Source: a virus (taxonomy: Duplodnaviria > Heunggongvirae > Uroviricota > Caudoviricetes). Taken from it: a DNA stretch of 44,903 nt. Below, piece after piece: positions 1 through 19,717 of this stretch; position 1 is the stretch's first letter, and every line of letters starts with the position of its first letter. Both the position numbers and the translations under genes were made by a program. A model generated the notes under the pieces. It saw nothing but the letters and a program-made list of their open reading frames with translations. It searched no databases and was not told the origin of the DNA. The DNA lies in the IMG/VR virus record IMGVR_UViG_2718217885_000015; one strand, given 5' to 3'.

Positions 1-588
1 TTACGTAACGTCAAACGCTCGAATTGATCCCAAATCCTCCAGTGTATTTAACGCATCTTTCATCTCACGCTGACGCTGATAAATCTCATCGTTGCGATCG
101 ACCTGCGCCTGCGCCATCGCTGCAGCCAGCCCCTCAAGTTCCAGCATCGACAGTTTCACCTTCTGATTATCAGCGTCACCCCACACCATAACATCCCGTG
201 CAGTGTAGGATTTCGCCGATATCACCACCGGATAAAGACGGGCTAGTGAGTCGGGGCCTGCGTTCCAGGTGTGACCGTTCCATTCGAACGTGAACGACAG
301 TGCTTCCTGTTCTGTACGCCATGCCTCAATTTCCCGCCTTTTGGCATCCTTTGCCGCTGCAATAAGTTCAGGCGTGACGGTGAACGGGGCGATTTCGCCC
401 CATTTCCCGCTTTGCAGCTCCTGCCAGACATGCTGGCCTGTCGGGGCCATATCATCCTGTATGGCAGTATACAGGGCGAACTCCGTTTCACCTTCAAATA
501 ACACCTCGCAGTCAACCGCACCATTTTCAAGATAATGTGCGTTTCTGATGCCTTTCACCGCTCTGATTTTCATGTCTGATTTCCTCAT
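1..588 (-). CDS. tfa: Tail fibre assembly protein (Tfa-like chaperone)
   Basis: 195-aa ORF immediately downstream of J on the minus strand; its ATG overlaps the J stop by 1 nt (TAATG); size and position match lambda Tfa-type chaperones. Stop codon at 1-3, so complete. Confidence 0.8.
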   Translation of the reverse strand: MRKSDMKIRAVKGIRNAHYLENGAVDCEVLFEGETEFALYTAIQDDMAPTGQHVWQELQSGKWGEIAPFTVTPELIAAAKDAKRREIEAWRTEQEALSFTFEWNGHTWNAGPDSLARLYPVVISAKSYTARDVMVWGDADNQKVKLSMLELEGLAAAMAQAQVDRNDEIYQRQREMKDALNTLEDLGSIRAFDVT

Positions 589-3500
589 TACTCAATGCGT
601 ACAAAAAGACCGATAAAGCCACGCTGAGTACCATAATTGTTACCCAGGCCCGAAAGCGCCGTGTAACGACCGGGGAAGTTGTATTCACCGGCACCGCCAA
701 TCACAACCTGCGGTGAGGATGCGTATGTCCCTGTATCACTAACCTGTGCACTCATGGCCAGAGGACCAAGACGGGAACCCGGCACAGTATCACCGAGTCC
801 CAGAGAAGCATTTTCACCAAAACTTTCTCCCTGATATACCGCCATAATCGGCACACCGACGGCCGGGTATTGGTAATATGAGAACGGACCATTACCGGCG
901 GTTGAGGACATCAGATATGCCAGGGAGTTGCCGTCATACACAATAAGGCTTGATGTTGCATTCCAGCTGTTACCACTGTAGCGATAACGCATACAATGTA
1001 TGCTGTGCTCATCCTCGTAATACTGGTTGTAGTACAGCAGCGTTTTGAATTTACGCGCTGAGTCTGAACCATCGTTATCAGAGGGTGACCACATCACATC
1101 AATGATACCGTTAAATTTCGTGGTGCCCACCAGCAGCGTGGAGGAGTCCGCAATACTGACCGCATAACGCCCCGGGGTGACTGTCTGCAGCCATATAACG
1201 AAATCAGCCTGTCCGTTAAATGACAGAGCTTCGGCGCTGGTGAATGCCTGTCCAAACCCATACATCCCGGACAGGGCCAGCCTGCCCGGTGTGCGGTCAC
1301 GGATATCACTCTGGGGTTCCATCGTCGCAGCCGCGCTCAGCTCAAGCTCCGTGCGCATGGCTTCAGCCGTGTCATGCGCCAGCAATGCGCGGCCCTTCTC
1401 TGACAGCAGAGACAGTGAGGCATTCCCGTCCGTATTGAAGTACAGAAGATTATCTGCCCGTTGCGTCAGTGCGCTGATTGCCGTTAAGACGTCATTAAGC
1501 GGTTGTTTGCCTGCCAGCGCGTTTGTGATTGTCGTCGCAAAGTTCGGGTCATTGCCCAGCGCCGCTGCCAGCTCGTTCAGGGTGTCCAGAACTTCCGGCG
1601 ATGAGCCAACCAGCGCAGCAAGCAGTTTGCGCACAAACGCTGCGTTCGCTGCTTCCAGACCGGCGGCATCATCCGGTGGGGTTGGGGTGGTTGGGGTGCC
1701 GGTGAAGGCCGGGCTGTCCAGTGGCGCTTTTGTTTTCGTCTCGTCCATGACGGTTTTGACAGCCTTTGGCGTGGCAGCCAGTTCCTCGCTGTCGTTGTCC
1801 GTATCACTACACAGTTGCACCAGACCTTTTTCTGTCGTGGAGGCATTTGTTGCATTCAGGTCATCAACTATCTGCTGCGCCTCATCCCTGTACTGTTTCG
1901 CTTCCTGCGCATTGTCTGCACCTGCATCCTGGCTGGCTTTAGCCTGTCGGGCGTATTCAGCGGCGCTGTTTTCATGCCCGAGTGCAGCATTTGCTGCATT
2001 TTCCGCGCTGGTTGCAGCTGATGATGCGGCATTATGATAAAGGCGGGCACGTTCGGCGGCATCGACTGATTCGTCCCGCGCTGTGCCTGATGACTGTGCG
2101 CTGTTTTCTGTCTCCCCGATTTTTTGGGTCACTTCAGCAATATCACTCTCTATCTGCTGATTGATCTCATCCTCCAGTTGCTCAACTTCACTGCGCAATG
2201 CCGAGGCATTAATACGATCGTTCAGCTCCTGCCCCAGCAGGGTGCTGTTTATTTTCCCTTCAAAAAAATTGAGATACACCTCAGCATCGTTACCCGGCTG
2301 GCCAACAGCCTCCACAAATGCCGATTTGCCGACGGTATTCACACTGCGAACGTAAAAATAATAATTATTGCCCGGCTCAATATCCGGTCCGGAGGCTATC
2401 CAGTACAGCGCCGTACCAAGATAGCGGGCTGTGGTTTCAACCTGCCTGATATCGATAATCCGCTTTTCCGATAACCAGAACTCAAACTGTACCGTCGGGT
2501 CATATACAGCCAGTTTCGGGACCGCCGTTATCTGAAAATACCCCGGTATCAGTTCAATAGTGACAGGCGCTGCCGGTGCCGCAATCCGGAACGATACCGA
2601 CGCCGGATCACCCTGCTGCCCCCGGGCATTTACCGCCCGGACCGTCAGCATATAACGCCCCAGCGCCAGTTGTCTGAAGCGGTATGTGGTTTCCGTCGTC
2701 CGGGCTGTGCTGACCAGCCGCTCACTGCCGTCGTCCGCTGCCACGGTCAGGCGAAGCATGAAGCTCACGCCCTTCACCACCTTCGGCGTGTCCCAGCGGG
2801 CCAGTACCTGATACTCCCCGCTGTCTGCGGTGACTTCGGCGGTAAGGTGCTGCACCGCTGGCGGTGTGACACCATTCACCGTGCCGCTCTGGTCGCCGTC
2901 AAAGTGCGCCCCGTTATCCACGATGGCTTCTTTTTCCGGTACATGCTGCACGGCAGTGATGGCATACGTGCCGTCGTCGTTCTCACGGATACTCACGCAG
3001 CGGAACAGGCGCTGGCGCAGCGTCGGCAGCTTCAGCCCCCACACGCTGTATTCGGCAACGCCGTCAGGAACACGGCTCACTTTCACCTTCATGCCGTCGG
3101 TGACGGACTGAACCTCCACGCTGACCGGATTGCCATTTCCGTCAACCAGGCTTATCAGCGTGGTGCCGGAGGATGGCAGCGTGATTTCACGGTCGAGCGT
3201 CAGCGTCCGGGTCTGGCTGTTCACCGCCAGCACACGACCACCGGTGCTGATACCGGCATAGTCATCATCACAGATTTCAATAACATCGCCCGGTACATGG
3301 CGAAGCCCTTCGGCACCCACGCTGAAGTCCACGGTCTGCGTTTCCAGCAGTTCCGTTTTAATCAGCCACAGCCCGGCGCGGTGCGCCTGCCCCCGGCTGG
3401 TACAGCCAAAGGCATCCATCTTCGTGACGTTACGACCGTAACGGGCAATGGCCTGCGTGTCCTCCACAAGCTCTGTTGCCGTCTCCCAGCCGTTGTCCGG

Positions 3501-4715
3501 GTCAATCCAGTTCACCTCAACGGCATTATGGCGGTCCTTCAGGGCGCTGAAGCTGTAGCGGAACGGCGCGCCATCATCCGGCATCACCACATTACTGCGG
3601 TTATAGGTCCACACCTTATCTGATGGTCGGTCCTGCACGAACGTCAGCGTCTGCCCGTTCCATACCGGCATACAGCGCATCGCCGAGCAGAAATCACTGA
3701 GCACATCCCACGCCTTGCGCTGTGTGGTCAGGTACGCATTACAGGTGATGCGCGGCTCCGTGCCGCCAAAACCGTCCGGCACCGACTGATCGCAATGCTG
3801 GCCGATGACATACAGCGCCCATTTGTCCACATCCGCCGCACCAAGACGTTTCCCCATGCCGTAGCGCGGATGGGTCAGCATATCCCACAGACACCAGGCC
3901 GGGTTGTTGCTGTATGCCGGCTTAAACGTTCCGTCCCAGATACCGCTGTATTGCCGCGTCTGCGGGTTATAGTTCGACGGCACCTGCAGAATGCGCCCGC
4001 GCAGATGATAATTACGGCTCACCTGCTGGCTGCCGAACTGCTCCGAATCCACCTGCACGCCGACCAGTGCCGTGTTCGGGTAGCACTGTTTCACATCGAT
4101 GATTTCAGTGTATGACGACCAGAGCGTTTTGTTCTGCAGCTGGTCTGTGGTGCTGTCCGGCGTCATCCTGCGCATCCGTATATTGAACGGGCGCGGCGGC
4201 AGGTTACCCACCACCACCGAGGCCAGATACTGCGAGGTGGTTTTGCCCTTAATGGTGATGTCTTTTTCCGTCACCCAGCCACCATTACGCTGGATCTGAA
4301 CCAGCAGGCGGACTTCCGACGGATTCCGGTCCCCCTTTGAGGTGGTTTCCACCAGTGCCTGCACACCGAAGGTAAAGCGCAGACGGTCAATGTTTGCAGA
4401 TGTGATGGTCCGGGTGATCGGCGTGTCGTATTTCACTTCCGTACCCAGCACCGTCTCGGAACCGGAGGATTCAAATCCCTCCGGCGGTGCCTGCTCCTGC
4501 TCACCTGCCCGGAACACGACCGTGACACCGGAGATGTTGGTATTCCCCTCAGTGTCCAGCACCGGCGTACTGTTCAGCAGCACGCTTTTTAATCCATCCA
4601 CCGGACCTTCAATCGGCCCTTCGCTGATGGCATCAATCACACTCAGTAACTGCGTGGACTTCAGGTTGTCCTTCGCTTCGCGCGGGGTATGCCCCTTACT
4701 GCTGCCTTTACCCAT
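588..4715 (-). CDS. J: Host specificity / central tail fibre protein J, with a side-tail-fibre-like C-terminal region
   Basis: 1375 aa; the first ~800 residues align with lambda J as I recall it (e.g. [21 protein letters not shown]); the C-terminal ~550 aa carry a conserved tail-fibre motif (TEKGLVQL...AATPKAVK...[13 protein letters not shown]) and a Gly/Tyr-rich distal region instead of the lambda J C-terminus. Confidence 0.9.
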
Positions 4716-4775: not shown

Positions 4776-5447
4776 TCAGCGACCAATCACCACAACCTGA
4801 CCACCGTCCCCCTCGTCTGCCGTGCTGATCTCCTGAGAAGCCACCCGCGACCCCACGCGCATTTCACCGTACAGAACAGGCAGAACATTGCCCTGGGCAA
4901 CCATGTTATCCAGTGAGGAGAAATAGGTGTTCTGCTTACCGTTATCCGTTGTCTGTGTACGGGGAGTTCTGGCTTTCGGTGCCAGCATCTGCGCCACACC
5001 ACCAAGTACCATACTGGCACCGAGAGAAAACAGGATACCGGTCATACCACCGGCCCCAATGGCTGCCCCCCATGCTGCAAGGGTGGCTCCGGCAGTAAAG
5101 AATGATCCGGCAATGGCGGCAGCCCCCAGGACAATCTGGAATACGCCACCTGACTTGGCCCCGGCGACTCTGGGAACAATATGAATCACAGCGCCGTCAG
5201 GCAGAACCTCATGTAACTGCGCCGTCAATCCGGACGTGCTGACGTCCCGCCCGGAAATCCGTACCTGATACCAGCCGTCGCTCAGTTTCTGACGAAACGC
5301 CGGGAGCTGTGTGGCCAGCGCCCGGATGGCTTCGGCCCCCGTTTTCACACGCAGATCGATGCGGCGGCCAAATCGTTGTAAATCCCCGTAAAGGCAGATG
5401 CGTGCCATGCCTGGTGACGCCAGAGGGAGTGTGTGCGTCGCTGCCAT
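4776..5447 (-). CDS. I: Tail assembly protein I
   Basis: 223 aa, near-identical to recalled lambda I (MAATHTLPLASPGMARICLYGDLQRFGRR...); overlaps the 3' end of K as in lambda. Confidence 0.9.
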   Translation of the reverse strand: MAATHTLPLASPGMARICLYGDLQRFGRRIDLRVKTGAEAIRALATQLPAFRQKLSDGWYQVRISGRDVSTSGLTAQLHEVLPDGAVIHIVPRVAGAKSGGVFQIVLGAAAIAGSFFTAGATLAAWGAAIGAGGMTGILFSLGASMVLGGVAQMLAPKARTPRTQTTDNGKQNTYFSSLDNMVAQGNVLPVLYGEMRVGSRVASQEISTADEGDGGQVVVIGR

Positions 5448-6088
5448 TTGTCGGTATACCTCTCTCGTTTGCTCAGTTGTTCAGGAATATGGTGCAGCAG
5501 CTCGCCGTCACCACAGTAAATGGCGGCATGATTCGGCACCGATGAACCAAAGCAGCACAGCAGCACATCGCCCGGTTGTGCTGATGACAACGGCACCTGA
5601 TACAGCCCTGTGGCCTCCAGATTATCCAGATAGAGATTCTGACCTGATTTCCACCAGTCATCATGTCGGTAAAAATCCGGCAAATCGATACCTGCAAGAT
5701 GATAGGCATCGCGGAACAGCGTATAACAGTCTGTCACCCCGTGCTCAAAACGCCGCCCGGTGAGATGCGGCACACAGCGGAACTTATGAATCACTCCCCG
5801 GCAGACCAGCCACCACGGCAAATCACTCTGCACCTGCAGCCGCCTGTCGGCCTCACTCAGCCAGGGCAGACCACCGGGGTGGCTGTGGACCAGCGCCACA
5901 ATCTCACCCTGCATTTCTGCCTGCAGCCAGTCTTCCGGCGACATACGGAAATACGCCTCCGGCTCACCGGAAATATTCACGCAGGGAAAATATCTTTCCC
6001 CCTCCGGCGCTCTCACCACGAAGCCGCACGACTCCGCTGGCGCACATCGCCGGGCGTGCGCCAGAATCGCTGATTCTGTCTGTGTCAT
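5345..6088 (-). CDS. K: Tail assembly protein K (NlpC/P60 and JAB/MPN-like)
   Basis: 247-aa ORF starting MTQTESAILAHARRCAPAESCGFVV, matching recalled lambda K; HSHP motif present. Confidence 0.9.
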   Translation of the reverse strand: MTQTESAILAHARRCAPAESCGFVVRAPEGERYFPCVNISGEPEAYFRMSPEDWLQAEMQGEIVALVHSHPGGLPWLSEADRRLQVQSDLPWWLVCRGVIHKFRCVPHLTGRRFEHGVTDCYTLFRDAYHLAGIDLPDFYRHDDWWKSGQNLYLDNLEATGLYQVPLSSAQPGDVLLCCFGSSVPNHAAIYCGDGELLHHIPEQLSKRERYTDKWQRRTHSLWRHQAWHASAFTGIYNDLAAASICV

Positions 6089-6093
6089 GGGAT

Positions 6094-6792
6094 TTACTGC
6101 GAAAGTTTGTTAATGGAAAGGAAGCCGCCAAAGTTGCCGACGTTATTGCGGAACTTACAACCGCTCAGGCATTTGCTGCATTTATCCTTCGTGATATCGG
6201 ACGTTGGCTGGTCATATTCATCCGCGACAGCCGGACCGCTATAACCGCACTCATCACCGCGATAGGTCCAGGTGCAGGTGTTGGCCAGCATGATACGTCC
6301 CGGAAAAACAGCGCCGTCCGTTTCCGTCGGCGTGGACAGTACAAAGGAGGCACTCACCGCGCTCAGTTCGCTGCACTGCTCGATGCGCCAGCGGCTGATC
6401 ACCTCCTGCTCCGGATCGGCGTCACTGTTTCCGTTGACGAAGTTCACCGCATCCAGAAAACGGGCGTAAACCTTACGCCGGACCACCGTTCCGCCGACCA
6501 GACTCTGCAGATCTTCCGCCATCCCGGTGACCATACCGTACAGGTTAGAAACCGTCAGCGTGGGGCGCGTACTGGTGCCTTTGCCATTCAGTTCAAAACC
6601 ACTCCCCTGAATGGGATACGGCTGATACTGTCGCCCCTGCCAGGTGACCGGCTCACCTTTTTCGTTCTGCTCATTACAGAAAAAATAACGTTCTCCACCG
6701 ACCTCTGTCAGGTCGATTTCCCAGAGCACCACGCTGGCCGACTGCTCCGCACGGGTGCATTCATTCAGTGTTTCCTGCCGGATATCCTGCAT
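6094..6792 (-). CDS. L: Minor tail protein L
   Basis: 232 aa; position between K and M; C-terminal Cys cluster (CSKCLSGCKF) as in lambda L. Confidence 0.9.
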   Translation of the reverse strand: MQDIRQETLNECTRAEQSASVVLWEIDLTEVGGERYFFCNEQNEKGEPVTWQGRQYQPYPIQGSGFELNGKGTSTRPTLTVSNLYGMVTGMAEDLQSLVGGTVVRRKVYARFLDAVNFVNGNSDADPEQEVISRWRIEQCSELSAVSASFVLSTPTETDGAVFPGRIMLANTCTWTYRGDECGYSGPAVADEYDQPTSDITKDKCSKCLSGCKFRNNVGNFGGFLSINKLSQ

Positions 6793-7121
6793 CAGTTCAC
6801 CACCTGTTCAAACTCTGCGCTGAACTCAACACGCAGCATACTGACCCGCGACGACCATTTTGCGCAGGTCACCTTTATCTGCCGCCACTCATAAGGCGGC
6901 GTCCACAGAAAGGCTTTCCAGCCCCCGTGCTCAGCCAGAAACGACTCCAGCGCCGTGGCCTCCTCACGGGAGACAGACAGCGTCACGCTGTACGTTTTCA
7001 GGTCAGCGTTCAGCCCGGCAGGCGCTCGCTGGGAATAGCCATCACCAAAGCGCACTTTCCTGACGGAAGGGGCCGAAACCACATCCATACCGGGTTTCAC
7101 TTTCCAGCGGAAGGTTTTCAT
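6792..7121 (-). CDS. M: Minor tail protein M
   Basis: 109 aa, lambda M-like, between H and L. Confidence 0.9.
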   Translation of the reverse strand: MKTFRWKVKPGMDVVSAPSVRKVRFGDGYSQRAPAGLNADLKTYSVTLSVSREEATALESFLAEHGGWKAFLWTPPYEWRQIKVTCAKWSSRVSMLRVEFSAEFEQVVN

Positions 7122-9697
7122 CGTCCACCTCCGGAGAACAGGCCACCATCACGCATCTGTGTCTGAATTTCATCACGGGCACCCTTGCGGGCCATGTCAT
7201 ACACTGCCTTCATCATCTGTGGACCTGGCAGACCATTCGTACCGTCGTTCTGAATCACCACGTGATTGTTCTGATTAAAATTAATGCCTTCAGCCCGCCG
7301 CATCTGCGCCGGACTTCCGGCACCGCCCACATAACCACCTTCCGCATAGCCCCGCATCAGGCGGTACAGGTTGCCGACACCAATCCGGCTGGTTGCCTCC
7401 TTCGTGAAGACAAATTCACCACGGTGAACAATCCCCGCTGGCTCATATTTGCCGCCGGTTCCTGTGAATCCTCCGGTTGCAAAATGGAATTTCGCCGCAG
7501 CGGCCTGAATGGCTGTACCGCCTGACGCGGATGCGCCACCACCAACAGCCCCGCCAATGGCGCTGCCGATACTCCCGACAATCCCCACCATTGCCTGCTT
7601 AAGCAGAATTTCTGTCATCATGGACAGCACGGAACGGGTGAAGCTGCGCCAGTTCTGCTCACTGCCGGTCAGCATCGCCGCCATATTCTGTGCAATACCA
7701 TCAAAGGTCTGCGTGGCTGCACTTTTTACCTGCGACATACTGTCCGTGGCGCTCTCTTTCCACTCGCTCCAGCCGGACCTGAGGCCTGCCATCCAGCTCC
7801 CGCGAAGCTGGTCTTCAGCCGCCCAGGTCTTTTTCTGCTCTGACATGACGTTATTCAGCGCCAGAGGATTATCGCCATACTGTTCCTTCAGGCGCTGTTC
7901 CGTGGCTTCCCGTTCTGCCTGCCGGTCAGTCAGCCCCCGGCTTTTCGCATCAATGGCGGCCCGTTTTGCCCGTTGCTGCTGTGCGAATTTATCCGCCTGC
8001 TGCGCCAGCGCGTTCAGGCGCTCCTGATACGTAACCTTGTCGCCAAGTGCAGCCAGCTGGCGTTTGTACTCCAGCGTCTCATCTTTATGCGCCAGCAGGG
8101 ATTTCTCCTGTGCAGACAGCTGGCGACGTTGCGCCGCCTCCTCCAGTACCGCGAACTGACTCTCCGCCTTCCACAAATCCCGGCGCTGCTGGCTGATTTT
8201 CTCATTTGCTCCGGCATGCTTCTCCAGCGTCCGGAGTTCTGCCTGAAGCGTCAGCAGGGCAGCATGAGCACTGTCTTCCTGACGATCGCCCGCAGACACC
8301 TTCACGCCGGACTGTTTCGGCTTTTTCAGCGTCGCTTCATAATCCTTTTTCGCCGCCGCCATCAGCGTGTTGTAATCCGCCTGCAGAATTTTCCCGTCTT
8401 TCAGTGCCTTATTCAGCTCTTCCTGACGGGCGGTATATTTCTCCAGTGGCGTCAGCAGGCGCTCATACGCCTTCTGCGCCTCTCCGGTATACTTCAGCTG
8501 TGACGCCTCACGCTCAGCCCGGTCCCTTGCCACCAGTTCACCGGCTTTTTCCATATCCGACTGCAGCGTGGCTGCCGCCAGCCCCAGACGGGCATTTTCA
8601 CGGTCATCCCATGCACCCTGAAGGTTGGCACGGAAAGAGGAGGTCTTTCCCCGGCGCTGACTCCGGCTCTGGTACCACTGCCATTTTTTATCCGCCTCAT
8701 CAAATGCCTTCTGCGCACTGGCGAGCATATCCGCTGAGGATTCAGGACGACCGATATCCAGGATGGCATCCCACATCAATTTGAATGCCTTCCCGGTTTT
8801 ATCCGCCCAGGTTTCCAGCGTCCCCATGTTTTCTTTCAGGCGACGGGTCTGCTCATCAAAGCCTTTTGTGGCGATATCGTTCGCCGCCTGTAAGGCCCCT
8901 GCCTCATCCCCCGAACGCTGCAGCTGCGCAACATACGCAATCTGCTCTGCCGTCACGTTACGGAACTGGCGCGCCATAGCCATCAGTCCCGACGTCGGGT
9001 CGGTGGTCAGCTTTCCAAAAGCCTCTGCAACCTTGTCCACTTCCACACCGGATGCAGAAGCAAAACGCGCCACACTCTGGTTGATGGCATCAAACTGTTC
9101 ACCACCACGCACACCGGCATTCACCAGGGCTGCCAGTGACTCGCTCGCCTGGTTAAACGTCAGCCCTGCTGCCTGTCCGGCTCTGGAGAGCGTCAGCATG
9201 CGATCGGCAGTCAGTCCGGACTGATTACCGGAAAGAACCAGGGTTTTATTAAACGCTGAAAGCGTGGAATCCCCCTGGTACCAGGCATACGCCAGCGCAC
9301 CTGTCGCCACCGCCAGCGAGGTGACCCCGACCATCGGCAGGGTGATCGCACCGGCAAGCCCCCTGAACATGGGGATCATCCCGCCGAAGGCGTCCTTCAC
9401 CTGACCGCCCTGTTGCAGCAGGATCAGCCAGGGATTCTGACCACCGGCAAGCTGCGTGGCGATATCCGTAAACTGTGCAGGCAGGGTACGCATGGCCGCT
9501 TTATACTGCCCGACGGAAATCCCGGCTTTTTGTGCAGCCAGCGCCTGACGGCTCAGGCCCTGTTCAACAGCACTGGCGGTTTTTCTGGCGTCGGTATCCA
9601 GTCCTGAAAAATGACGCCTTACCCGGCTTATCTGCTCATCGAAACGGACCGCATCCAGACTCAGGTCAATAACAAGATCACCAACCGGCTGGGACAT
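7118..9697 (-). CDS. H: Tail tape measure protein H
   Basis: 859 aa, coiled-coil-rich with a Gly-rich C-terminal region; located downstream of G/G-T as in lambda. Confidence 0.9.
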   Translation of the reverse strand: MSQPVGDLVIDLSLDAVRFDEQISRVRRHFSGLDTDARKTASAVEQGLSRQALAAQKAGISVGQYKAAMRTLPAQFTDIATQLAGGQNPWLILLQQGGQVKDAFGGMIPMFRGLAGAITLPMVGVTSLAVATGALAYAWYQGDSTLSAFNKTLVLSGNQSGLTADRMLTLSRAGQAAGLTFNQASESLAALVNAGVRGGEQFDAINQSVARFASASGVEVDKVAEAFGKLTTDPTSGLMAMARQFRNVTAEQIAYVAQLQRSGDEAGALQAANDIATKGFDEQTRRLKENMGTLETWADKTGKAFKLMWDAILDIGRPESSADMLASAQKAFDEADKKWQWYQSRSQRRGKTSSFRANLQGAWDDRENARLGLAAATLQSDMEKAGELVARDRAEREASQLKYTGEAQKAYERLLTPLEKYTARQEELNKALKDGKILQADYNTLMAAAKKDYEATLKKPKQSGVKVSAGDRQEDSAHAALLTLQAELRTLEKHAGANEKISQQRRDLWKAESQFAVLEEAAQRRQLSAQEKSLLAHKDETLEYKRQLAALGDKVTYQERLNALAQQADKFAQQQRAKRAAIDAKSRGLTDRQAEREATEQRLKEQYGDNPLALNNVMSEQKKTWAAEDQLRGSWMAGLRSGWSEWKESATDSMSQVKSAATQTFDGIAQNMAAMLTGSEQNWRSFTRSVLSMMTEILLKQAMVGIVGSIGSAIGGAVGGGASASGGTAIQAAAAKFHFATGGFTGTGGKYEPAGIVHRGEFVFTKEATSRIGVGNLYRLMRGYAEGGYVGGAGSPAQMRRAEGINFNQNNHVVIQNDGTNGLPGPQMMKAVYDMARKGARDEIQTQMRDGGLFSGGGR

Positions 9698-10549
9698 ATC
9701 TCACACCTCCAGGAATCCCCGCTGAAGCCATCATTAATGCGACATCATCCTCACTGACATCCACCACATCCGCAGAAGGTGAAATATCGCCCCCTCCTTC
9801 CCCACCAAACCGGATGCCTCCGGCAAGTCCTGCCGCTTTCTGCATCAGCATTTTTTCCTCATCCGGCATTTCCGTCTGCTCTTCCTCACGCCGGGGGGCA
9901 AGCAGACTGAAGTCCGAGGGATACATATCCGGATCGCAAAAAAACAGGCTGAGTACGGTGTACGTCAACCCGGAAAAATGCATATCCAGTTGGGTATCGT
10001 GAAAATAATGCGTGCGGTAAAAACGGTGCCAGTCGGCATATTCGGTGGATGTCATCCCGGCAAGCATGGCGCGCCAGTCAGGCCTCCCCATCTCACGCGC
10101 CAGTCTGAGGGCAAAATTCAGCTCGCCGTCGAAGACTTTCCCGCAGAAAAATCATCATCAGTAAGCGCATTATTTTTCGCCACTTCGGTGATATCCGTAT
10201 CCACATGAACAGGCTCACTCATCCCGGACAGGCACAACACCACTTCTTCCGCCCGGGCAACGGCATCGGCAGGCCAGGTGGTGAGCACTTCCTGCTCTAT
10301 CTTCATCACGGCCTCATTCATTGACGGTGACTCCGTTTTCTGTGGATGGTTATGCCACAGGGACATCGCCACCAGAAACGCCCCGGTTCTGACAAGGTCT
10401 TCCACGCTCACCTGCAGGTTGCCGCTGACTTCAGCCTCTTCTGCCCGCCGTTTCAGGAGGGCAAGATGCTCAATACGCTGCAGCGCAGACAGCTCAGAAA
10501 GCGTGACAGACACACCGTTATATTCAAATTGTTCTGTTTTCAGAAACAT
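9678..10549 (-). CDS. GT: Tail assembly chaperone G-T fusion, made by programmed -1 ribosomal frameshift
   Basis: The ORF 9678-10091 is in the -1 frame relative to G and in phase with a -1 slip at GGGAAAG (minus-strand positions 10142-10136); I checked the codon phase directly. This is the conserved lambda G/GT arrangement. Confidence 0.75.
10118..10549 (-). CDS. G: Tail assembly chaperone G
   Basis: 143 aa; ends ...FSAGKSSTAS; the slippery heptamer G GGA AAG lies in frame 0 near its 3' end. Confidence 0.9.
   Translation of the reverse strand: MFLKTEQFEYNGVSVTLSELSALQRIEHLALLKRRAEEAEVSGNLQVSVEDLVRTGAFLVAMSLWHNHPQKTESPSMNEAVMKIEQEVLTTWPADAVARAEEVVLCLSGMSEPVHVDTDITEVAKNNALTDDDFSAGKSSTAS
10136..10142 (-). 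other. Programmed -1 frameshift slippery heptamer G GGA AAG
   Basis: Plus strand CTTTCCC at 10136-10142; on the minus strand it reads GGGAAAG with codon phase G GGA AAG in the G frame. Confidence 0.8.
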
Positions 10550-10562
10550 GTATAACCTCCGT

Positions 10563-11315
10563 TTACCCTGCAGCGCCCGCTTCAGTAACGGTGACTTCAG
10601 CTACCGTGGCAAACTGACCATTACCGGAAATCACGGGGATACTCACTTTTCCAGCCTTAACCCCCGTCACAGTGATCACCATATCTTTCACAGCAATGGT
10701 TCCCGTTGACGGATCGGCGGAAACCGCTCTGAACGTCTTGTCGGTTGCACTTTCCGGCTCAAAAGAAACAGTCAGGGTGGTTGCTTTCCCTTTTTCCACG
10801 GTACCGGATGTCGGCGTCACCTTAATTGCAGTGACCGGCGTAATTTCGCTGCGTTCTTCCGCCACGGAGGGTTTGCCCACGTTGGTAACTTTCACTGTTC
10901 GGGTGATCACTTCTTTCGCCGTCACGGCCTTACCGATACTGCTGACCCAGCCACGAAACACATCCACCGTGCCATTCGGAAAACGGATTTTATAGGCCCG
11001 GACATCGCCGCTTTCAAACCAGCCTATAAGCCCTTTCTGGCCTTCCTCTCCCGGTTTCCAGGCCAGCGTAAAACTGGTATCACCCGCAGATTTCTGTCCC
11101 TGCCCGGTCGCGGTCCAGTCCGCGTCTTCATCATCCAGGTAGTTATCATCGTAGGATTCTGCCGTCATCTCGCCGGGTGTCAGATCCTTCACCTTAGCCA
11201 GTCGCTGCCAGTCATCGTCTGACAACGGGTTTGCATAAGCATCACCCGTGCCGGTGTAAACCCACAGTGTGGTACCGGCACCTTTTACCGGCGCCAGGGG
11301 ATTTGGTGTTGCCAT
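10563..11315 (-). CDS. V: Major tail protein V (with C-terminal Ig-like domain)
   Basis: 250 aa, lambda V-like, between U and G. Confidence 0.9.
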
Positions 11316-11322
11316 ATCGTCC

Positions 11323-11718
11323 TCACATCTCGTATGTAATGGAATAAGTCAGATCTGCAGAACTCCACAATGCCATATCGTCATCACGACGATAGTCATA
11401 GCCCTGCGTAACCATCGTGGTAATCATGCCTGCCAGTGCAGGGATCGCCGCCATCGCCGGGTAAATCCGGCTTTCCATCCACTGATCAAGCTCTGAATCC
11501 GGTACCTGTGCCGGTAAAAACACCTCAATATGCAGTGTGGCCCGCCAGGTATCTGCATCCAGCTCTTCACCGGTATACTCTGCATCCGTCAGATAAACCG
11601 CGACCGCGGGAAAATCCTCTTCGTCAAAAACAACGGGGCGACCATCAAACAGCGTCGCCCCGTGTTCATGCTGCTCCAGTGCATCCAGCACTGCAGCACG
11701 GATATCAGTATGTTTCAT
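11323..11718 (-). CDS. U: Tail terminator protein U
   Basis: 131 aa, lambda U-like. Confidence 0.9.
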
Positions 11719-12249
11719 CGTTTTATCGCAATCCTCAGTTGTTGTTTCAGCGCATATGCCAGTTCTCCGGGCAGGCGTTCACGCCGGATACGGTCAACGT
11801 TTTCATCAAACGCCTGTTTCAGTGGGGCCGCCATCGGGATTTTCACCACATCAATGGGGTAACGGTTTTTCCCGGCCACACGCTGCATTACATGCCAGCG
11901 ACCATTTTTTAATCGCTGAATAAATGCCCGCTGATAACGATGCTGACCGGCTTTGAGTATGCTGTTCGGACGACGGCCCAGCATCCTGATCCCCAGCTTA
12001 ATCACCGGGAGATCACCGCGTTTAACGATAATTTTGGCATTCGGATTTCTGACCGTGGCCCGTTTCAGTCTGGACCGTTCCTTTACCAGTTTCCGGCTCA
12101 CCCTGGTCTCCCGGGCAACCTGTGGACGAAGACTGATTAATCGCCGTTGTGGCCACGCGGTTAATGGCCATTGCTGAAGCCGCCGGAATGGCGTTTTTAC
12201 GAACCCGGCTCAGATTTTCAATCGCCTGATCAAGCCCTTTTATCGCCAT
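11715..12249 (-). pseudogene. Z: Tail completion protein Z, disrupted by a single-base frameshift
   Basis: The N-terminal 43 codons (MAIKGLDQAIENLSR...INQSSS, from 12249) and the C-terminal part (...QVARETRVSRKLVKER... to 11715) both match lambda Z but sit in different frames; the frames switch at about 12121-12126, consistent with a 1-nt insertion. Confidence 0.7.
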
Positions 12250-12263
12250 AATTCACCCTGCGT

Positions 12264-12617
12264 TTATCGTCGCCGGTTAACTGCCGGTGGTTGCCCACGG
12301 TTGAGCCAGAGATAACAACTGCCCCCGTCATCCGGAGAAACACGATCCACCCAGAATGTCTCACCATTAATGGTCAGCGTGTCACCACGCCGCACAGCAC
12401 GAACCGTATCCGTCCGTACAAATAATGACGGGCAGCTTCCTTCAATACGGACCCCGCTACCGGCAAACCCCAGCGACTCCGGATCGTCAAAAACCCCCTG
12501 AACTTCGCTGCCACACTGTGCCCCCGAGGTGAACTGCGCACAGAGCCCCATCACTTCAATAATCGTGCTGTCCACCCCGGCAAGGGCAGCATCAAAGGCA
12601 TTCTGAAAATCACGCAT
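12264..12617 (-). CDS. FII: Head-tail joining protein FII
   Basis: 117 aa, lambda FII-like, between FI and Z. Confidence 0.85.
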   Translation of the reverse strand: MRDFQNAFDAALAGVDSTIIEVMGLCAQFTSGAQCGSEVQGVFDDPESLGFAGSGVRIEGSCPSLFVRTDTVRAVRRGDTLTINGETFWVDRVSPDDGGSCYLWLNRGQPPAVNRRR

Positions 12618-12993
12618 GCTCAGCCGTTCCGTGCTGTATCATGGCTGTCGCCAGTGGTGATGGCACCAGAACACGCATGCCCCGGTACGTCAGTTCAACG
12701 GGACGGCCTGTCTCCGGGCAATACCCCATCACATGCAGGCATTTCCGCACACGAACCGCTTTAACATCATCCGTAGCATCAGTGTTGTGCAACTGCTCAC
12801 CATCGTCTGTGTGATTTTGCTCAGGCCCGCTCTCATCACCAGGCATAATGCCCTCCCGGGAAGCAGCAAGCTCCTCTTCCCACTCAGACACACGTTGCGC
12901 AATATCCGCAGCACTCCCCGATATATCCGCCTCGCGCCCCAGCAGGCCAGCCAGTTGACGAAGACGATTCAGATTTTCTTCTTTTGTTGCCAT
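12610..12993 (-). CDS. FI: DNA packaging protein FI
   Basis: Likely start at MATKEENL, preceded by a GGGGG ribosome-binding site; acidic lambda FI-like protein downstream of E. Confidence 0.75.
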   Translation of the reverse strand: MATKEENLNRLRQLAGLLGREADISGSAADIAQRVSEWEEELAASREGIMPGDESGPEQNHTDDGEQLHNTDATDDVKAVRVRKCLHVMGYCPETGRPVELTYRGMRVLVPSPLATAMIQHGTAEHA

Positions 12994-13044
12994 ATCAGCC
13001 CCCTGTGAAAAAAGACACGGGGGCATTTCGCCCCCGCTCACGGA

Positions 13045-14073
13045 TTATTTCACCTGCACCACCACAAACTCATCCGGATCTGGCAGCACCATCAGCGGTG
13101 CGGACTGCGTCATGGTAAATTCACGGGCCGGATCGCCCACGGTCAGCCAGTGTTTCGGATAACGGGAAGAGGCCACCACACCTTCGGACAACGCCTGTGC
13201 ATCCTGAATGGCACCATAGCAACGAATGCCCTCTGCTGCCGTATTCCCCAGGACCAGTGTACCCTCCGGCAGATAACGTTTTTCGGTACCGTCTTCTGCC
13301 ACATAAGACGTTTTTGCCACCACAATGGCCAGATCACCGTAATACCCTTTGAAAGACACCACAGCCCCCAGGTCTTTCACTGCCGTTTCGAGTTGTGAAT
13401 TTGAGCCGCGACGGGTATCCAGTTTTTCGCGGAAAAGCTTAAAGCCATTCAGCAGACGCCAGACAGTACCGTCCATAATGGCAATATTCACAAGACCGCT
13501 GGCCTGATCGCAGTAAAGGTCAATATCATGCGTCGGATCAAACGTATCACGGTCCTGCTCAGACCATTTTTTACCGTCGGCCTGCTCAATGTTATTTCCT
13601 TCAGAGCGTCCAAAATCAACCTCAATTTTCTCGAACTGGTCTCCTTCCATGGTGTATTTGCCATACAGCACGGCATTCACCGCCTGCATTTCTTCCACCT
13701 GGACAATGGCGTGCTCTTCCTGTTTGAGGTTATCTGTGATGATACGCAGACGACGGTAGGCCGGGTCGTTCAGCTGAGCCGGATCTTCACCGGGAAGACG
13801 CTCAACCGCCTGCTGGTAATTAAATTCGTGTTTCGGCTTGACGTAGCCCGGACGTAACACGCGGGTTTCACCACCACGATGACGCAGCACTTTTCCTTCA
13901 ACAACCGGGGAAACATAGGCCGCCACCGGCGTTTTTCCGGTAATTTTGTCCAGCATCACCTCTTCGGTATGGAAATTCACCGTACGGCGGAAAAACAGCT
14001 CCAGAAACAGCGCACGATATTTCACTTTTTGTTCGGTATAACCGAGCAACTGGCGGGTCGTAAACAATCCCAT
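13045..14073 (-). CDS. E: Major capsid protein E
   Basis: 342 aa with strong similarity to recalled lambda E (e.g. KLDTRRGSNS.LETAVKDLG, TGDPAREFTM.QSAPLM). Confidence 0.95.
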   Translation of the reverse strand: MGLFTTRQLLGYTEQKVKYRALFLELFFRRTVNFHTEEVMLDKITGKTPVAAYVSPVVEGKVLRHRGGETRVLRPGYVKPKHEFNYQQAVERLPGEDPAQLNDPAYRRLRIITDNLKQEEHAIVQVEEMQAVNAVLYGKYTMEGDQFEKIEVDFGRSEGNNIEQADGKKWSEQDRDTFDPTHDIDLYCDQASGLVNIAIMDGTVWRLLNGFKLFREKLDTRRGSNSQLETAVKDLGAVVSFKGYYGDLAIVVAKTSYVAEDGTEKRYLPEGTLVLGNTAAEGIRCYGAIQDAQALSEGVVASSRYPKHWLTVGDPAREFTMTQSAPLMVLPDPDEFVVVQVK

Positions 14074-14130
14074 AAATCAGTTCCTTTCATTCAGAAATCA
14101 GTCAGGCCACCGCGGTGGCCTGATAACGTG

Positions 14131-14478
14131 TTACGGCAGCGCCGCGTGACTCAGGGCACTGCCGGCAAAGGCATTTGCCTTTTTGTGTTCATCCACACTT
14201 TCAGGCCAGCGGATTGCCTCCGTCGCAAAGGTCCCCGACTTGTAATAGGTCAGTACCGTCTCTGTGCCTTCAAGCGGCAGTACCAGTATGCCAACCGCAC
14301 TACCGGCTTTCTGTCCGTCCCAGACCACCAGTTTCCCGCTGGCTTCATCCAGCATCAGGGGCGTCAGTGCCGGTGTTGCCGAGGAAATCCCGCTGCTGCC
14401 TGTGGCGGTGTGAGCCGGATCATTACCTGCAAAAATACGTACTTCCGCACGCTGTTCAGTGATGGTTTTCGTTACCAT
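14131..14478 (-). CDS. D: Head decoration protein D
   Basis: 115 aa; motifs NDPAHTAT, TPLMLD and KSGTF shared with lambda D. Confidence 0.9.
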   Translation of the reverse strand: MVTKTITEQRAEVRIFAGNDPAHTATGSSGISSATPALTPLMLDEASGKLVVWDGQKAGSAVGILVLPLEGTETVLTYYKSGTFATEAIRWPESVDEHKKANAFAGSALSHAALP

Positions 14479-14514
14479 ATTGTAAAAACCTCCTGTTGAT
14501 GGTCAGCACTGACT

Positions 14515-16020
14515 TCATGGCATGGCCATGAGCATTTTCACGTCCGCATCACCGTCTGCTGACGTCTGTGGCACGCCACCCTGTACCGCTGCCGGTGAAT
14601 GGTTCGCCATGAAATGTTCAAACATGGCGGTTGTGGATGCAGAGACCGGCTCTGCCTTACCTGATCCCGCAGCCAGCACAGCCCGGGCGCTCTCCACGGT
14701 CATTCCCGGGCAGGCAGCCAGCTGTTCAGCCTGCGCCTCAGCCCCTTTTGCCTCATCCAGTGCCATGATCTGATCACGGAGTGAGGGTCCGGCATCCGCC
14801 TGCGGTGAAGCAGCCAGGACAGGGCGGGCTTTTTCCACCGTCATCTCCGGCATCGCCGCCAGCGTTGCCGCCAGTTGTTCACGACCTTTCGCCTCTTCAC
14901 ACGCCATAATGCGATCGGCTTCACTCTGCGTGGATGCCACCGGCTGCTGCGGTGCCGCCGCGGCCAGAATCGCCCGGGCCTGTTCAACGCTCATGCCCTG
15001 TTGTCCTGCCAGCATCGTGGCAAGCTGTTCACGTCCTTTCGCTTCCTGGCATGTCAGGATCCCCATTACTCGCTGGTTCTCCTGCACGGCGGCTTCCGTT
15101 GCAGTTAATTGCGGCATAGTGCCTCCTGTATCATGTGTGTTCAGCGCCGTTGCCATCACACTGATGGCATCCGACGCATTGATTAATTCATCCGCCAGCC
15201 CGGCCTCAATGCCGGACTGACCTTCAAAAACGGCGGCCTCTGTTCCCGTGACCGCATCCACAGACAACCCGGTATACATCGCCACTTTTTCGGCAAACAT
15301 CCGGTGCGCCGCATCAATGCGCTTCTGCATGTCCTGGCGAACCTCTGCCGGTAAGGCTTCAAACTGATTGCCATCCACCTTATGCGCCCCTGAGTAAATC
15401 AGCGTGATATCCACACCGGCCTGTGCCAGATGCCCGGCATAGCTGACATGGCTCATCATCACGCCAATGGAGCCGATACGGGATGTCTGGGTAACCAGCC
15501 GTCGGGAGCAGGCCGACGCCAGCAGCATGGCTGCAGAACAGGCCGTGTCATTGCACAGTGCCCAGACCGGCTTCTGCTGGCGGAGGCGATAAATCATGTC
15601 AGCGCAGTCAAACGCGCCGGCGGCCTGCCCGCCCGGACTGTCAATGTCCAGCAGTACGCCCCGCACCTGGCTATCCGCCATTGCCTGCTGAAGACAGGCG
15701 ACAATGCCATCATAGCCTGTCATTCCGGAAAATGGCCGCATACCACCCAGCCTGTGCACCAGCGTGCCGGTCACCGGCAGTACCGCAATACCGTTCACCA
15801 CCCGGTAAACACGGGCCGGTCGTTTACCTCCGGCCATGTACTCGTCCGTTTCAGCCAGCATTCCGGGAGCATCAAGCTGTACCTGCTGTTGTGGTACCGA
15901 AAGACTTGCTGCCCCCATCTCGCGCCCGAGCGCGCAAAAGAAAACCCGCGCATAGGCGGGCTCCAGAAGCAGCGGTTCATTGAATGCTGCGGCAATAATG
16001 TGTGAAAGATTACGTCTCAC
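14515..16020 (-). CDS. C: Prohead protease C (S49 family) with in-frame Nu3-like scaffold region
   Basis: 501 aa; N-terminal ClpP/S49-like protease region, then a C-terminal region holding three ~35-aa tandem repeats; position between B and D. Confidence 0.9.
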   Translation of the reverse strand: MRRNLSHIIAAAFNEPLLLEPAYARVFFCALGREMGAASLSVPQQQVQLDAPGMLAETDEYMAGGKRPARVYRVVNGIAVLPVTGTLVHRLGGMRPFSGMTGYDGIVACLQQAMADSQVRGVLLDIDSPGGQAAGAFDCADMIYRLRQQKPVWALCNDTACSAAMLLASACSRRLVTQTSRIGSIGVMMSHVSYAGHLAQAGVDITLIYSGAHKVDGNQFEALPAEVRQDMQKRIDAAHRMFAEKVAMYTGLSVDAVTGTEAAVFEGQSGIEAGLADELINASDAISVMATALNTHDTGGTMPQLTATEAAVQENQRVMGILTCQEAKGREQLATMLAGQQGMSVEQARAILAAAAPQQPVASTQSEADRIMACEEAKGREQLAATLAAMPEMTVEKARPVLAASPQADAGPSLRDQIMALDEAKGAEAQAEQLAACPGMTVESARAVLAAGSGKAEPVSASTTAMFEHFMANHSPAAVQGGVPQTSADGDADVKMLMAMP

Positions 16021-17602
16021 GTGGTGTTGTCTCCTCTTCCGGCCTGCGACTCTCCGCTATCTGCTGCTGATACGCCTGCGCTATCCACACCGGACGTGAG
16101 AGTCCGGCTTTTTGCCGCTCTGCAGATTCCCTGACCTGCTGGCGGAAAATGTCCTGATAATCCTCGCCCATCAGCGCCAGCTCTTTCTCATACGTGCTCA
16201 GTCCGGCCTCAATGCGCATCACCGATTCCTGGACTTCCTTGAGCCCGTCAATGGCCATTCTTCCGGCACCAATCCACTCTGCCCGTGACCAGGCTGATCG
16301 CGCCTGATAAAAATCAAAACGTGCCCGTGGCGGACGAATAATCCCCCGAAGAAGTGCCTCTTCCAGCCAGCAGGAAAACATCTGCGTGGCCAGCCGGGCC
16401 GCAATAAATTTTCGCCGCCCCATAAAATAGCGCCACGACTCATTGGCGGAGGCGCGGGCACTTGAGTAACTGACCTTCGAGTAATCACGGGACAACTGTT
16501 CGTAGGAAACGCCAAGACCGGCGGCGATATACCGCAGAAGCGCCTGTTCAAGCGCAGAAAATCCATTGTCTGAATCCTGCGCAGTCTGTAGTTTCAGATC
16601 ATCACCAGGGAAAAGGTGCGGAATTTTGACACCGCCCAGTGTCACGTGATTCGTGTCATACCAGCTGGAGAACTTCTCCAGAATATTAATAAGCGGATTA
16701 TCCTTCTGCTCCTGTGGCGCGCCGGCGATATATTCAAAGGCCTTTTCGGTATCAAGTTCACTTTCAATCGTCGCTGCATACATCGCCTTCACTATGGCCG
16801 ACTGAAGCTGTGTTGCCTGCAGGGAATCGAGCATCTTCAGCCGTTCCATGACGCTGTAAAACTGATTAGCCCCACGGGTCTGCCCGTCCTCCACCGGCTC
16901 GAAAATATGCAGCATGGCCGGACGCCCGGTGGGAAGTTCACGCGGGATCCGTTCCCATCGTCCACTACCAGAGAACGGAAAATCATCCTCACAGATATGG
17001 TACGCGACGGCACGGCCATATCGATCGACCTCCACACCAGCCCGCAGAAAACGGTTCCCCATACCGTGTCCAGGCGTGTCCACCCGTTTCGGACTCACGG
17101 CTTTAAAACGCGTACGGAATAACTGCGTGGTTTCCGTATCCCAGACCGGCTGCACAAAGATTTCGCCGTTAAACGCATGAACGCCCACACCTTCACGGAT
17201 AAATTCCGTGAACGTGCGTTTTCCTTCCACGTCGATCTCGCCAGACATCCCTTCGGCGTATTCCGACCAGGCCGCCTCCACCTCATCGACAAAGCTTTTT
17301 GCTGCGGTCTCCCGCATCCCCAGCCAGCGCCAGTTCGGACGGTAGCTGATCAGAAACATATGCCCGACAATGTGATCCTTATGCAGAGCCACCGCATTAG
17401 CCGCTATTCCGTTATTGCGCACCAGATCATCTGCCCGGGCATTCCCCAGACGCAACGCGGGCAGCAGGGCCGCATCGGCACTCTGCGCCGGTGGCAACCA
17501 CTCAGCCATTTGCCCGCCAAATCCTGCGCCGCCCCCGTTGTAGCTGAGACTCTCACGAAGCGGAACGCCGTTCACATCAATCAGGACAGGCGTTCGTTTC
17601 AT
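16010..17602 (-). CDS. B: Portal protein B
   Basis: 530 aa, lambda B-like portal, between W and C. Confidence 0.95.
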   Translation of the reverse strand: MKRTPVLIDVNGVPLRESLSYNGGGAGFGGQMAEWLPPAQSADAALLPALRLGNARADDLVRNNGIAANAVALHKDHIVGHMFLISYRPNWRWLGMRETAAKSFVDEVEAAWSEYAEGMSGEIDVEGKRTFTEFIREGVGVHAFNGEIFVQPVWDTETTQLFRTRFKAVSPKRVDTPGHGMGNRFLRAGVEVDRYGRAVAYHICEDDFPFSGSGRWERIPRELPTGRPAMLHIFEPVEDGQTRGANQFYSVMERLKMLDSLQATQLQSAIVKAMYAATIESELDTEKAFEYIAGAPQEQKDNPLINILEKFSSWYDTNHVTLGGVKIPHLFPGDDLKLQTAQDSDNGFSALEQALLRYIAAGLGVSYEQLSRDYSKVSYSSARASANESWRYFMGRRKFIAARLATQMFSCWLEEALLRGIIRPPRARFDFYQARSAWSRAEWIGAGRMAIDGLKEVQESVMRIEAGLSTYEKELALMGEDYQDIFRQQVRESAERQKAGLSRPVWIAQAYQQQIAESRRPEEETTPRET

Positions 17603-17805
17603 AACCTCACTCCCAGCGGACGACGGCGACGTCGGGTTGTCCCCAGTACCGACTCCGCATCATTGATCGCCCGGTTAAGCTCATCCAGAGAAGCTGCCGT
17701 ATATTCAATTCTGCGACCATCTTTCTGGACAGACACCACCCGTTTACCGGTTAATAAATCAAGGCGCGCCTGACGCAGCGCCTGCAGTTCAGCGACTGTA
17801 ACCAT
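17599..17805 (-). CDS. W: Head-tail joining protein W
   Basis: 68 aa, between A and B. Confidence 0.85.
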   Translation of the reverse strand: MVTVAELQALRQARLDLLTGKRVVSVQKDGRRIEYTAASLDELNRAINDAESVLGTTRRRRRPLGVRL

Positions 17806-19717
17806 TCACTCCTCCGGACAGCTTCGCTGCCAGTTCTTTAAGGGTTGGCCGGGTCGTCTCTTCTTCCCGGGATTTTGCCAGTACAGCCAGATCAAGCTGC
17901 CAGCGTTGCACGGACACACGTAATGCCGCGTAGGCATACACCAGACAGTCCAGCGCTTCGTTACGCCGCTTTTTGTTATCCCACAGCAGACGCATCTTTC
18001 CTTTTTCCCACTTCTCCACAAGCTCTTCCGCGACCAGTTGCTGCGCTTCTGTCTGCGAAAAAATCTCCGGATCATCAGGAAAACGGATGGCATACGACGT
18101 GGCTTCATCCGCAGGCGTGGGTTCAGCGTTCATACGGGCATAGAGAATTTCTTTTGCGGTGTCCGTCCCCACTTCACACAGATACACGCCCCGCTGATTG
18201 CGGGTTTTTGGCATGGTGATCACCGGCTTGCCATAGACAGATGCGCCTTTTACCGGCAGCACCCGGAAAACACCGTGTTTTTTTGACCTCTGATAAACGA
18301 TTTCGCCATCGATCCCCCCGGTGTCCCAGCAGACACGGGAAATGGTCATTTCGGTTCCGTCTGCATGGCGGTATTTTTTGTTGATCGCCGCATCCACACG
18401 TAACAGCGTCTCTTCCTCATCGGGACGCCCCATAATGATGATTTTATCCACCAGAAAGGCTTCCTCTCCCGGAGCCCATCCCCAGACATACATCTCAAAA
18501 CGGTTTCGCTGCGAGTCAATGCCCGCCGTCAGATAAACCACCCGGGCAGGCACCGCCGCCGTGTAACGCACAACCTTATCCATCAGTACCTGGTGATCGA
18601 GTTTTTCGCCCACGGCCTCTTCCCAGGTCTCGCCCAGCGTGGTGTTCACAAAGGTTTTCAGGCCGTTGGGATCTTTCAGTGCATCCAGCCAGTCATAGAC
18701 TATCTGTACCCAGGTGGTGAACGGACTGTACGCCGTCCAGATATGGAAAGTGATGGAGCGCGGCGGCGGAATTTCATCACCCCGGGCGCAGAAAAACATC
18801 AGGCCGTCACGGGTCCACATGCCCGTGTTTTCACAGATCCACCGCCCGTTGCTCTGGTCAAGCTCAGACTGATGGATCACGCAGCCATAATGTTCACAGA
18901 GGTAGAAAACGCTTTCGGGGCTGTCCTTCTCCCATTTAAGGCCAAAAGGCGTGGATTCATCGCCAAATTTCAGATACTGCGCCTCCCCACAGTGCGGGCA
19001 GGGCACATAAAAACGCATGAAATGTGCCGACTCGTTAGCGGCTTTTTCGATCTGACAGGTGCCTTTGATTTTAGGCGTCGAGCCGCGAATGGATTTTGGC
19101 CATACAGAGCCCTCAATACGCTTATCCCCCAGCAGGGTTGGCGAGCCCTCTTTTTCGACATCCGGCTCGAACGAGGAAAGTTCGTCATAGCAGACCACGT
19201 CCACGGATTTTTCACGGTAGTTTTTGGCGGCAGCGCCGCCCAGGCACCAGAAGCCCACACCCGATGAAAAGCGTTTCAGCGTGAGAGTATTGTCACGATG
19301 TTTACGACCCAGCCATGGGGAAAGGTCTTTCAGGCATGGCACGTCCCGAATCGTCGCCTCCACGTGAGACTTCATAAAATCTTCAGCGGCAGAATCCGTA
19401 GGCTGAAAAAGCAGACTGTTTCGGGATTTATGCTCAATAAAATACCCGACCACCCCCAGCAACATCTTTGTATAGCCAACACGGGCAGATTTAATCAGAT
19501 TAACAGTGCGGATCTGATCATTCCCCATGCTGTTCATGATGGCGATCTGGAATGGCAGCGTTTTCCATTCTCCCTCACCATATGAAGATTCTTTAGGCAG
19601 ATAATAATTTTGATCAGCCCATTCAACTGGCGTCACCGGCAATGCCCTTATCAGGGGCTGTAATGCTGTTGTGACAGCGCTCATCATATTATTCAGTTGT
19701 TGCTCTGATATATTCAT
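17789..19717 (-). CDS. A: Terminase large subunit A
   Basis: Strong match to recalled lambda A (TAVEWAD.NYYLPKES, CPHCGE.QYLKFGD, TTLGETWE); likely start at MNISEQQ (19717) rather than the upstream in-frame ATG at 19774. Confidence 0.95.
   Translation of the reverse strand: MNISEQQLNNMMSAVTTALQPLIRALPVTPVEWADQNYYLPKESSYGEGEWKTLPFQIAIMNSMGNDQIRTVNLIKSARVGYTKMLLGVVGYFIEHKSRNSLLFQPTDSAAEDFMKSHVEATIRDVPCLKDLSPWLGRKHRDNTLTLKRFSSGVGFWCLGGAAAKNYREKSVDVVCYDELSSFEPDVEKEGSPTLLGDKRIEGSVWPKSIRGSTPKIKGTCQIEKAANESAHFMRFYVPCPHCGEAQYLKFGDESTPFGLKWEKDSPESVFYLCEHYGCVIHQSELDQSNGRWICENTGMWTRDGLMFFCARGDEIPPPRSITFHIWTAYSPFTTWVQIVYDWLDALKDPNGLKTFVNTTLGETWEEAVGEKLDHQVLMDKVVRYTAAVPARVVYLTAGIDSQRNRFEMYVWGWAPGEEAFLVDKIIIMGRPDEEETLLRVDAAINKKYRHADGTEMTISRVCWDTGGIDGEIVYQRSKKHGVFRVLPVKGASVYGKPVITMPKTRNQRGVYLCEVGTDTAKEILYARMNAEPTPADEATSYAIRFPDDPEIFSQTEAQQLVAEELVEKWEKGKMRLLWDNKKRRNEALDCLVYAYAALRVSVQRWQLDLAVLAKSREEETTRPTLKELAAKLSGGVNGYSR

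Follow-up and report, generated by a model that had tools for sequence, protein, structure and literature searches.

One extra base splits the predicted tail completion gene Z of a lambda-like Escherichia coli prophage

We found that gene Z, on the minus strand at positions 11715..12249 of a 44,903-nt stretch of viral DNA (IMG/VR record IMGVR_UViG_2718217885_000015; henceforth the window), is split into two reading frames by one extra base. Judged by its sequence, Z is the PF06763 tail completion gene of a lambda-like E. coli prophage. We consider it, on balance, probable that the extra base is a real, very recent and lineage-private mutation in a prophage with an already decaying tail module, and we infer that it is present in the DNA itself and not just in the assembly. 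The lesion is an ordinary private single-base change, and both the gene and the type of prophage that carries it are well known.

Gene Z is read in two frames

Gene Z lies between the homologues of the head-tail joining gene FII, which sits immediately upstream, and the tail terminator gene U, and it is upstream of the tail tube gene V; annotated relatives and phage lambda agree with this placement. The start codon of U overlaps the stop codon of Z (ATGA), so that U is translationally downstream of Z. The features of this region are as follows:

12264..12617, minus strand: FII homologue (head-tail joining), from the ORF list and so annotated in strains 09-00049 and 08-00022
12124..12249, minus strand: Z codons 1-42 (MAIKGL...NQSSS), from translation, match to PF06763 profile positions 1-40 and alignment to intact Z
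12126..12124, minus strand: Z codon 42, TCC where relatives have TCA
12124..12125, no strand assigned: extra-base site, GG versus G (CC versus C on the coding strand), from the gap column and the context analysis
12022..12123, minus strand: out-of-frame tail of the N-terminal ORF, 33 residues (TGCPGDQGEPE...), with the stop at 12022-12024
11715..12122, minus strand: Z codons 43-177 and the stop codon (QVARET...RIAIKR, stop), one base off the N-terminal part; match to PF06763 profile positions 49-190
11323..11718, minus strand: U homologue (tail terminator), ‘phage minor tail U family protein’ in relatives
10563..11315, minus strand: tail tube gene V, from the ORF list

Between the FII and U homologues the ORF list holds no single ORF of the size of Z; two ORFs of 75 and 128 aa are found instead, and the frame changes after codon 42. 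Specifically, the first frame gives MAIKGLDQAIENLSRVRKNAIPAASAMAINRVATTAINQSSS, followed by 33 non-native residues and a stop, which together form the 75-aa ORF at 12022..12249. The second frame reads QVARETRVSRKLVKER...RIAIKR and ends at the stop at 11715; the longest ORF with a possible start in this C-terminal part (128 aa) begins with the GTG at 12101. Three-frame translation placed the frame switch between ...NQSSS and QVARET....

When the window was aligned with the intact Z genes of two genomes, exactly one gap column was obtained, and in the comparison with Z of strain 08-00022 this single gap was the sole difference, with zero substitutions. On the coding strand the window reads TCGTC[C]ACAGG where relatives read TCGTCACAGG (codons TCG TCC ACA versus TCG TCA CAG), while on the plus strand positions 12124-12125 are GG, against a lone G in relatives. 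The extra base was confirmed base by base against the sequences L003, L009 and L012, and the inserted base can be assigned to either 12124 or 12125. The first-pass annotation, which had proposed one extra nucleotide at about 12121-12126 in a non-homopolymeric context, was thus accurate as to the kind, place and surroundings of the lesion: the change is a duplication of one base to two (run length 1 before the insertion and 2 with it), outside homopolymers of at least 3 and outside Dam and Dcm motifs. GATC is absent from the site, and the nearest CCWGG, at 12102-12106, is 18 nt off.

When the one base is removed, a 177-aa protein is regained, and it matches Minor_tail_Z (PF06763) over profile positions 1-190 of 190 (E-value 3e-58; 197.2 bits against a cut-off of 23.9). 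Each fragment also matches on its own, the N-terminal one at profile positions 1-40 (41.4 bits) and the C-terminal one at positions 49-190 (137.7 bits), and the repaired protein shares 67% identity with lambda Z, which bears out the earlier description of both halves as lambda-like. No chain in the PDB matched gpZ by sequence.

The intact allele is common and the extra base is private

In a megablast search with positions 11715-12249 as the query, Z-like sequence was present in 3956 of 5426 complete E. coli genomes, none of which contained a 100% match to the Z of the window. In the best 17 records, 534 bases aligned with the 535 of the query (99.8% identity), and 17 complete E. coli genomes carry an intact 177-aa Z that is identical to that of the window bar one base. 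The extra base was absent from all 1618 records covering at least 80% of the query, as well as from every top hit. Given that the split is a deterministic one-base difference from 17 otherwise identical genes, chance is not at issue. The intact allele is annotated in RefSeq as ‘phage tail protein’ WP_000975024.1 and occurs in strains 08-00022, 09-00049, RM9088, the OkiPb strains and others. The DNA differs in nothing else, so the restored 177-aa protein is WP_000975024.1. Beyond complete genomes, a 40-mer across the insertion was not found in IMG/VR, in GTDB species representatives or in JGI metagenomes, and among deposited phages (INPHARED) there was neither the allele nor any match closer than 95.7%.

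The 75-aa N-terminal fragment was not among about 15 billion proteins, and the 128-aa C-terminal fragment occurs on four NCBI contigs (GCA_046697965.1, GCA_046697905.1, GCA_047261955.1 and GCA_047262155.1; L004-L008). We rejected these contigs as support for the allele of the window, given that they carry a different lesion 18 nt downstream and many split genes. In them, Z is split into 49 and 128 aa by a 1-bp deletion in a Dcm site (CCAGG, equivalent to window positions 12102-12106), and the genes for terminase, protease, tape measure protein and J are also fragmented. We take such fragmentation to be the signature of uncorrected long-read basecalling errors, and the Z break in these four assemblies looks like a systematic, methylation-related basecalling error and not like biology. 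Apparent frameshifts in Z can therefore be artefacts.

The window differs from its closest relative in the tail module

The window corresponds to the prfC-locus prophage of E. coli 09-00049 (NZ_CP015228.1). Over positions 22001-44903 the window aligns without a gap and at 100.0% identity to the prfC/dinI prophage of both 09-00049 and OkiPb01715, and positions 1-22000 match the 09-00049 prophage at 99.8%. In a base-by-base comparison with 09-00049 we counted 37 substitutions (34 of them within the tape measure gene, at 7538-8432), one single-base indel in 44.9 kb (the Z base) and one missing segment of 2.37 kb. All of these differences fall at position 12124 or below, in the tail module, and there is no difference at all across 12125-44903.

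7118..9697, minus strand: tape measure gene, in which the 34-substitution cluster at 7538-8432 forms a mosaic patch

The allele of the tape measure gene is also found in strain MFDS1022581 (identical over window positions 5514-8416), in which Z is intact. Because the same allele occurs there, we read the patch as a natural recombination tract and not as noise. An exact look-up of the tape measure protein of the window gave no match on record. An assembly chimera of two paralogous prophages of 09-00049 was also considered and rejected, as the tape measure variants differ from both paralogues and match MFDS1022581.

The second prophage in 09-00049 lies near yodB; its protease C gene is annotated as frameshifted, and it contains a second, identical and intact Z. 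A head and proximal-tail segment of about 13 kb (window positions ~8500-21770) is near-identical in the two prophages, with about 22 differences. In repeats of this kind, gene conversion and errors of polishing arise easily.

A second lesion fuses J to the side tail fibre

The missing 2.37-kb segment was located by BLAST; it is present in 09-00049 and corresponds to L003 14120-16492. In 09-00049 it comprises the first 193 codons of stf, all of lom and the last 360 codons of J, and its loss leaves a single ORF:

588..4715, minus strand: in-frame J::Stf fusion ORF of 1375 aa, from BLAST against L003, translation of the junction and Pfam

In the fusion, J contributes residues 1-~872 and the side tail fibre everything from residue ~194 onwards. 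The junction (2100-2118) falls within a short stretch of imperfect homology, GCTGTTTTCTG[T/C]CTC, which encodes GE[T/A]ENS in both proteins. According to Pfam, the fusion retains the FNIII-A, Phage-tail_3 and two Ig domains of J, and is without Phage_Tail_Tip (PF09327), the C-terminal receptor-binding domain of J (PF12421) and the N-terminal domain of the tail fibre (PF08400). The junction was absent from the 5426 complete E. coli genomes, and the fusion protein has no exact match on record.

The fusion is most likely a deletion that reflects decay, although a chimeric trimeric fibre, in which the distal end of the side fibre is carried on the J hub, is conceivable. The first-pass statement that all other morphogenesis genes look intact was wrong, given that this deletion fuses J to Stf and removes lom.

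A recent mutation or a consensus error

The same extra base could have arisen in two ways. If it is real, a single C on the coding strand would have been duplicated in codon 42 of Z, in the prophage beside prfC. Alternatively, the DNA of the strain may have an intact 534-nt Z, with the extra G present in the deposited sequence only, as a consensus or polishing error; we regard such an error as quite possible, though not as probable. It would account for the allele being a singleton across all collections searched and for a Z that is otherwise base-for-base identical to intact copies. In the nearest strain, moreover, Z lies inside the ~13-kb near-identical repeat between prophages. Near-identical repeats can be spanned by long reads only; read mapping in them is unreliable, and it is there that polishing performs worst. 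Doubling of a neighbouring base, from one to two, is a typical residual error of long-read consensus sequences, and sibling assemblies carry many single-base indels in the same operon, one of which (a different one) is within Z.

Several observations nevertheless argue against an error and for a real mutation. Firstly, relative to the intact Z (WP_000975024.1) of 17 complete genomes there is one gap and there are zero substitutions. Secondly, the assembly is clean: the Z base is the sole single-base indel in 44.9 kb relative to two independent and mutually identical assemblies (09-00049 and OkiPb01715), with none in 12125-44903 relative to 09-00049, while error-prone sibling assemblies contain 5-10 indels per 20 kb. 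Thirdly, in those sibling assemblies the indels are concentrated in C5, A4 and T3 runs and in GATC and CCWGG sites, whereas the Z indel is outside homopolymers of at least 3 and outside methylation motifs. A systematic long-read artefact thus lacks here both the sequence motifs and the many indels that would accompany it.

Location provides a further argument. The Z base is in or beside the one block of the window that is genuinely diverged (2100-12124, roughly a quarter of the total length) and not in the invariant 73%. An inherited difference would be expected to lie there, whereas an error placed at random would do so in only about one case in four. This block also contains the microhomology deletion, which inactivated or rewired J, lom and stf and would thereby relax selection on Z. 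This second private lesion of the tail is hard to ascribe to error, and we consider it unlikely that a 2.37-kb deletion at a microhomology is an assembly artefact. Finally, frameshifts in structural genes are frequent in RefSeq annotations of this prophage family.

Two further considerations weigh against a real mutation. No second independent assembly carries the allele, so nothing confirms it, and the near-zero divergence from 09-00049 outside imported patches implies that few de novo mutations are expected.

A tolerated or programmed frame change is improbable

If the split is real, it might still be tolerated, through +1 frameshifting, internal initiation or trans-complementation; we judge this to be very unlikely overall. 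Conceivably, low-level +1 ribosomal frameshifting at UCC-A could restore full-length gpZ, as a shift after UCC would yield a protein identical to the wild type. The frameshift is found in no relative, however, so that the site is not conserved, and the junction (CAG TCT TCG TCC ACA GGT) offers no slippery X XXY YYZ heptamer, in-frame stop, rare codon or stimulatory Shine-Dalgarno-like sequence upstream. It is likewise conceivable that initiation at GTG 12101, which is preceded by a Shine-Dalgarno-like GGGAG with a 6-nt spacer, produces a 128-aa C-terminal fragment working alone or together with the N-terminal one, but this fragment is without profile positions 1-48 of a single-domain family of 190 positions. 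That the frameshift is real and Z function is retained through either this initiation or rare +1 slippage at UCC-A seems to us extremely improbable; were it true, a tail completion protein could do without its N-terminal 48 residues or receive them in trans.

The third conceivable route is complementation in trans by the intact Z of a co-resident lambdoid prophage. Among related genomes, the median number of Z-like genes is 2 and the highest 7, and the second, identical Z of 09-00049 makes this route plausible if the strain from which the window comes is similar.

Programmed recoding at Z was rejected, given that the frame change is not conserved in relatives (the 1618 records and the top hits have no extra base) and that recoding signals are absent. 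A known recoding site of the operon is intact in the window: the G/GT slippery heptamer GGGAAAG lies at 10136-10142 on the minus strand, just upstream of the stop codon of G.

10118..10549, minus strand: gene G of the lambda-type G/GT pair
9678..10091, minus strand: gene T of the lambda-type G/GT pair

Consequences for the prophage

Lambda particles that lack gpZ look normal and are mostly non-infectious, which has been attributed to a misplaced DNA end at the head-tail interface (PMC11099176, PMC11784142). Under the favoured reading of a real mutation, translation from the Z start would yield 42 native and 33 nonsense residues before the stop, and with the other 135 codons out of frame full-length gpZ would not be made. 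By analogy with lambda genetics, virions from this copy of the prophage would assemble and look normal, yet be largely non-infectious; the earlier suggestion of poor infectivity is sound as such an analogy (PMC11099176, PMC11784142). If the base is real, the Z lesion and the J/lom/stf deletion together mark a decaying and probably non-transmissible prophage.

If, on the other hand, the base is an error, the correct annotation of Z is an intact gene and there is no further lesson. The claim that the prophage would then probably be fully functional does not follow, because correcting Z alone would leave the deletion of J, lom and stf in place, and an antirepressor gene is annotated as frameshifted as well. 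The competence of the prophage is limited by the J::Stf deletion whether the Z base is real or an error, and the split of Z by itself has little import beyond annotation.

Some other features of the prophage deserve mention. The antirepressor gene (N-terminal domain; ~22451-23021, minus strand) carries the label ‘frameshifted’ in the RefSeq annotation of 09-00049, whose sequence is identical there; because the same annotation stands on identical sequence, this pseudogene is common to relatives, unlike the Z lesion. An ‘anti-phage dCTP deaminase’ of 531 aa (41917-43512, plus strand) adjoins the integrase (43665-44903, minus strand); a defence gene is thus part of the cargo of the prophage. In the annotation of 09-00049, three tRNA genes (Arg, unclassified and Ile; ~26467-26720, minus strand) lie downstream of a DNA methyltransferase gene, a cluster typical of the late regions of Stx-like lambdoid phages. 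Decay of the prophage bears on the spread of such cargo, e.g., the dCTP deaminase and the tRNA genes. The window begins at the stop codon of a gene resembling those for tail fibre assembly (DUF4376) and finishes at the integrase start codon; both of its ends are thus gene ends, and the att sites lie outside it.

Comparison with known systems

The intact WP_000975024.1 allele is the nearest counterpart of the Z described here. Its DNA is identical at all 534 shared positions and it belongs to the same prophage type, in 09-00049 at the same prfC/dinI locus; the window differs by one additional base, which none of the genomes listed has.

Single-base indels likewise split structural genes of the same operon that PGAP annotates as pseudogenes in related lambdoid prophages: FII in 2013C-4991, protease C in the 09-00049 paralogue, the tape measure and terminase genes in MFDS1022581, and Z in GCA_046697965 and related assemblies. 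Many of these indels are in homopolymers or Dam/Dcm sites, in assemblies with many lesions, whereas that of the window is isolated and outside such motifs.

The gpZ of phage lambda (P03731; 7977-8555 in reference J02459) resembles the repaired protein over its full length and sits in the same gene order, FI-FII-Z-U-V-G-T-H. It has 192 aa compared with 177 aa here, the 15 missing residues being from a basic middle segment, and in the window a +1 insertion after codon 42 breaks the gene. By analogy, the role of the two proteins is expected to be equal, i.e., joining the tail after the terminator U and being needed for infectious particles (PMC11099176, PMC11784142).

The -1 frameshift of lambda G/GT occurs in the same operon and also makes a product that needs two overlapping frames. 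There, however, the shift uses the conserved heptamer GGGAAAG; the Z junction, by contrast, is without a slippery signal, is found in no relative and would call for a shift of +1.
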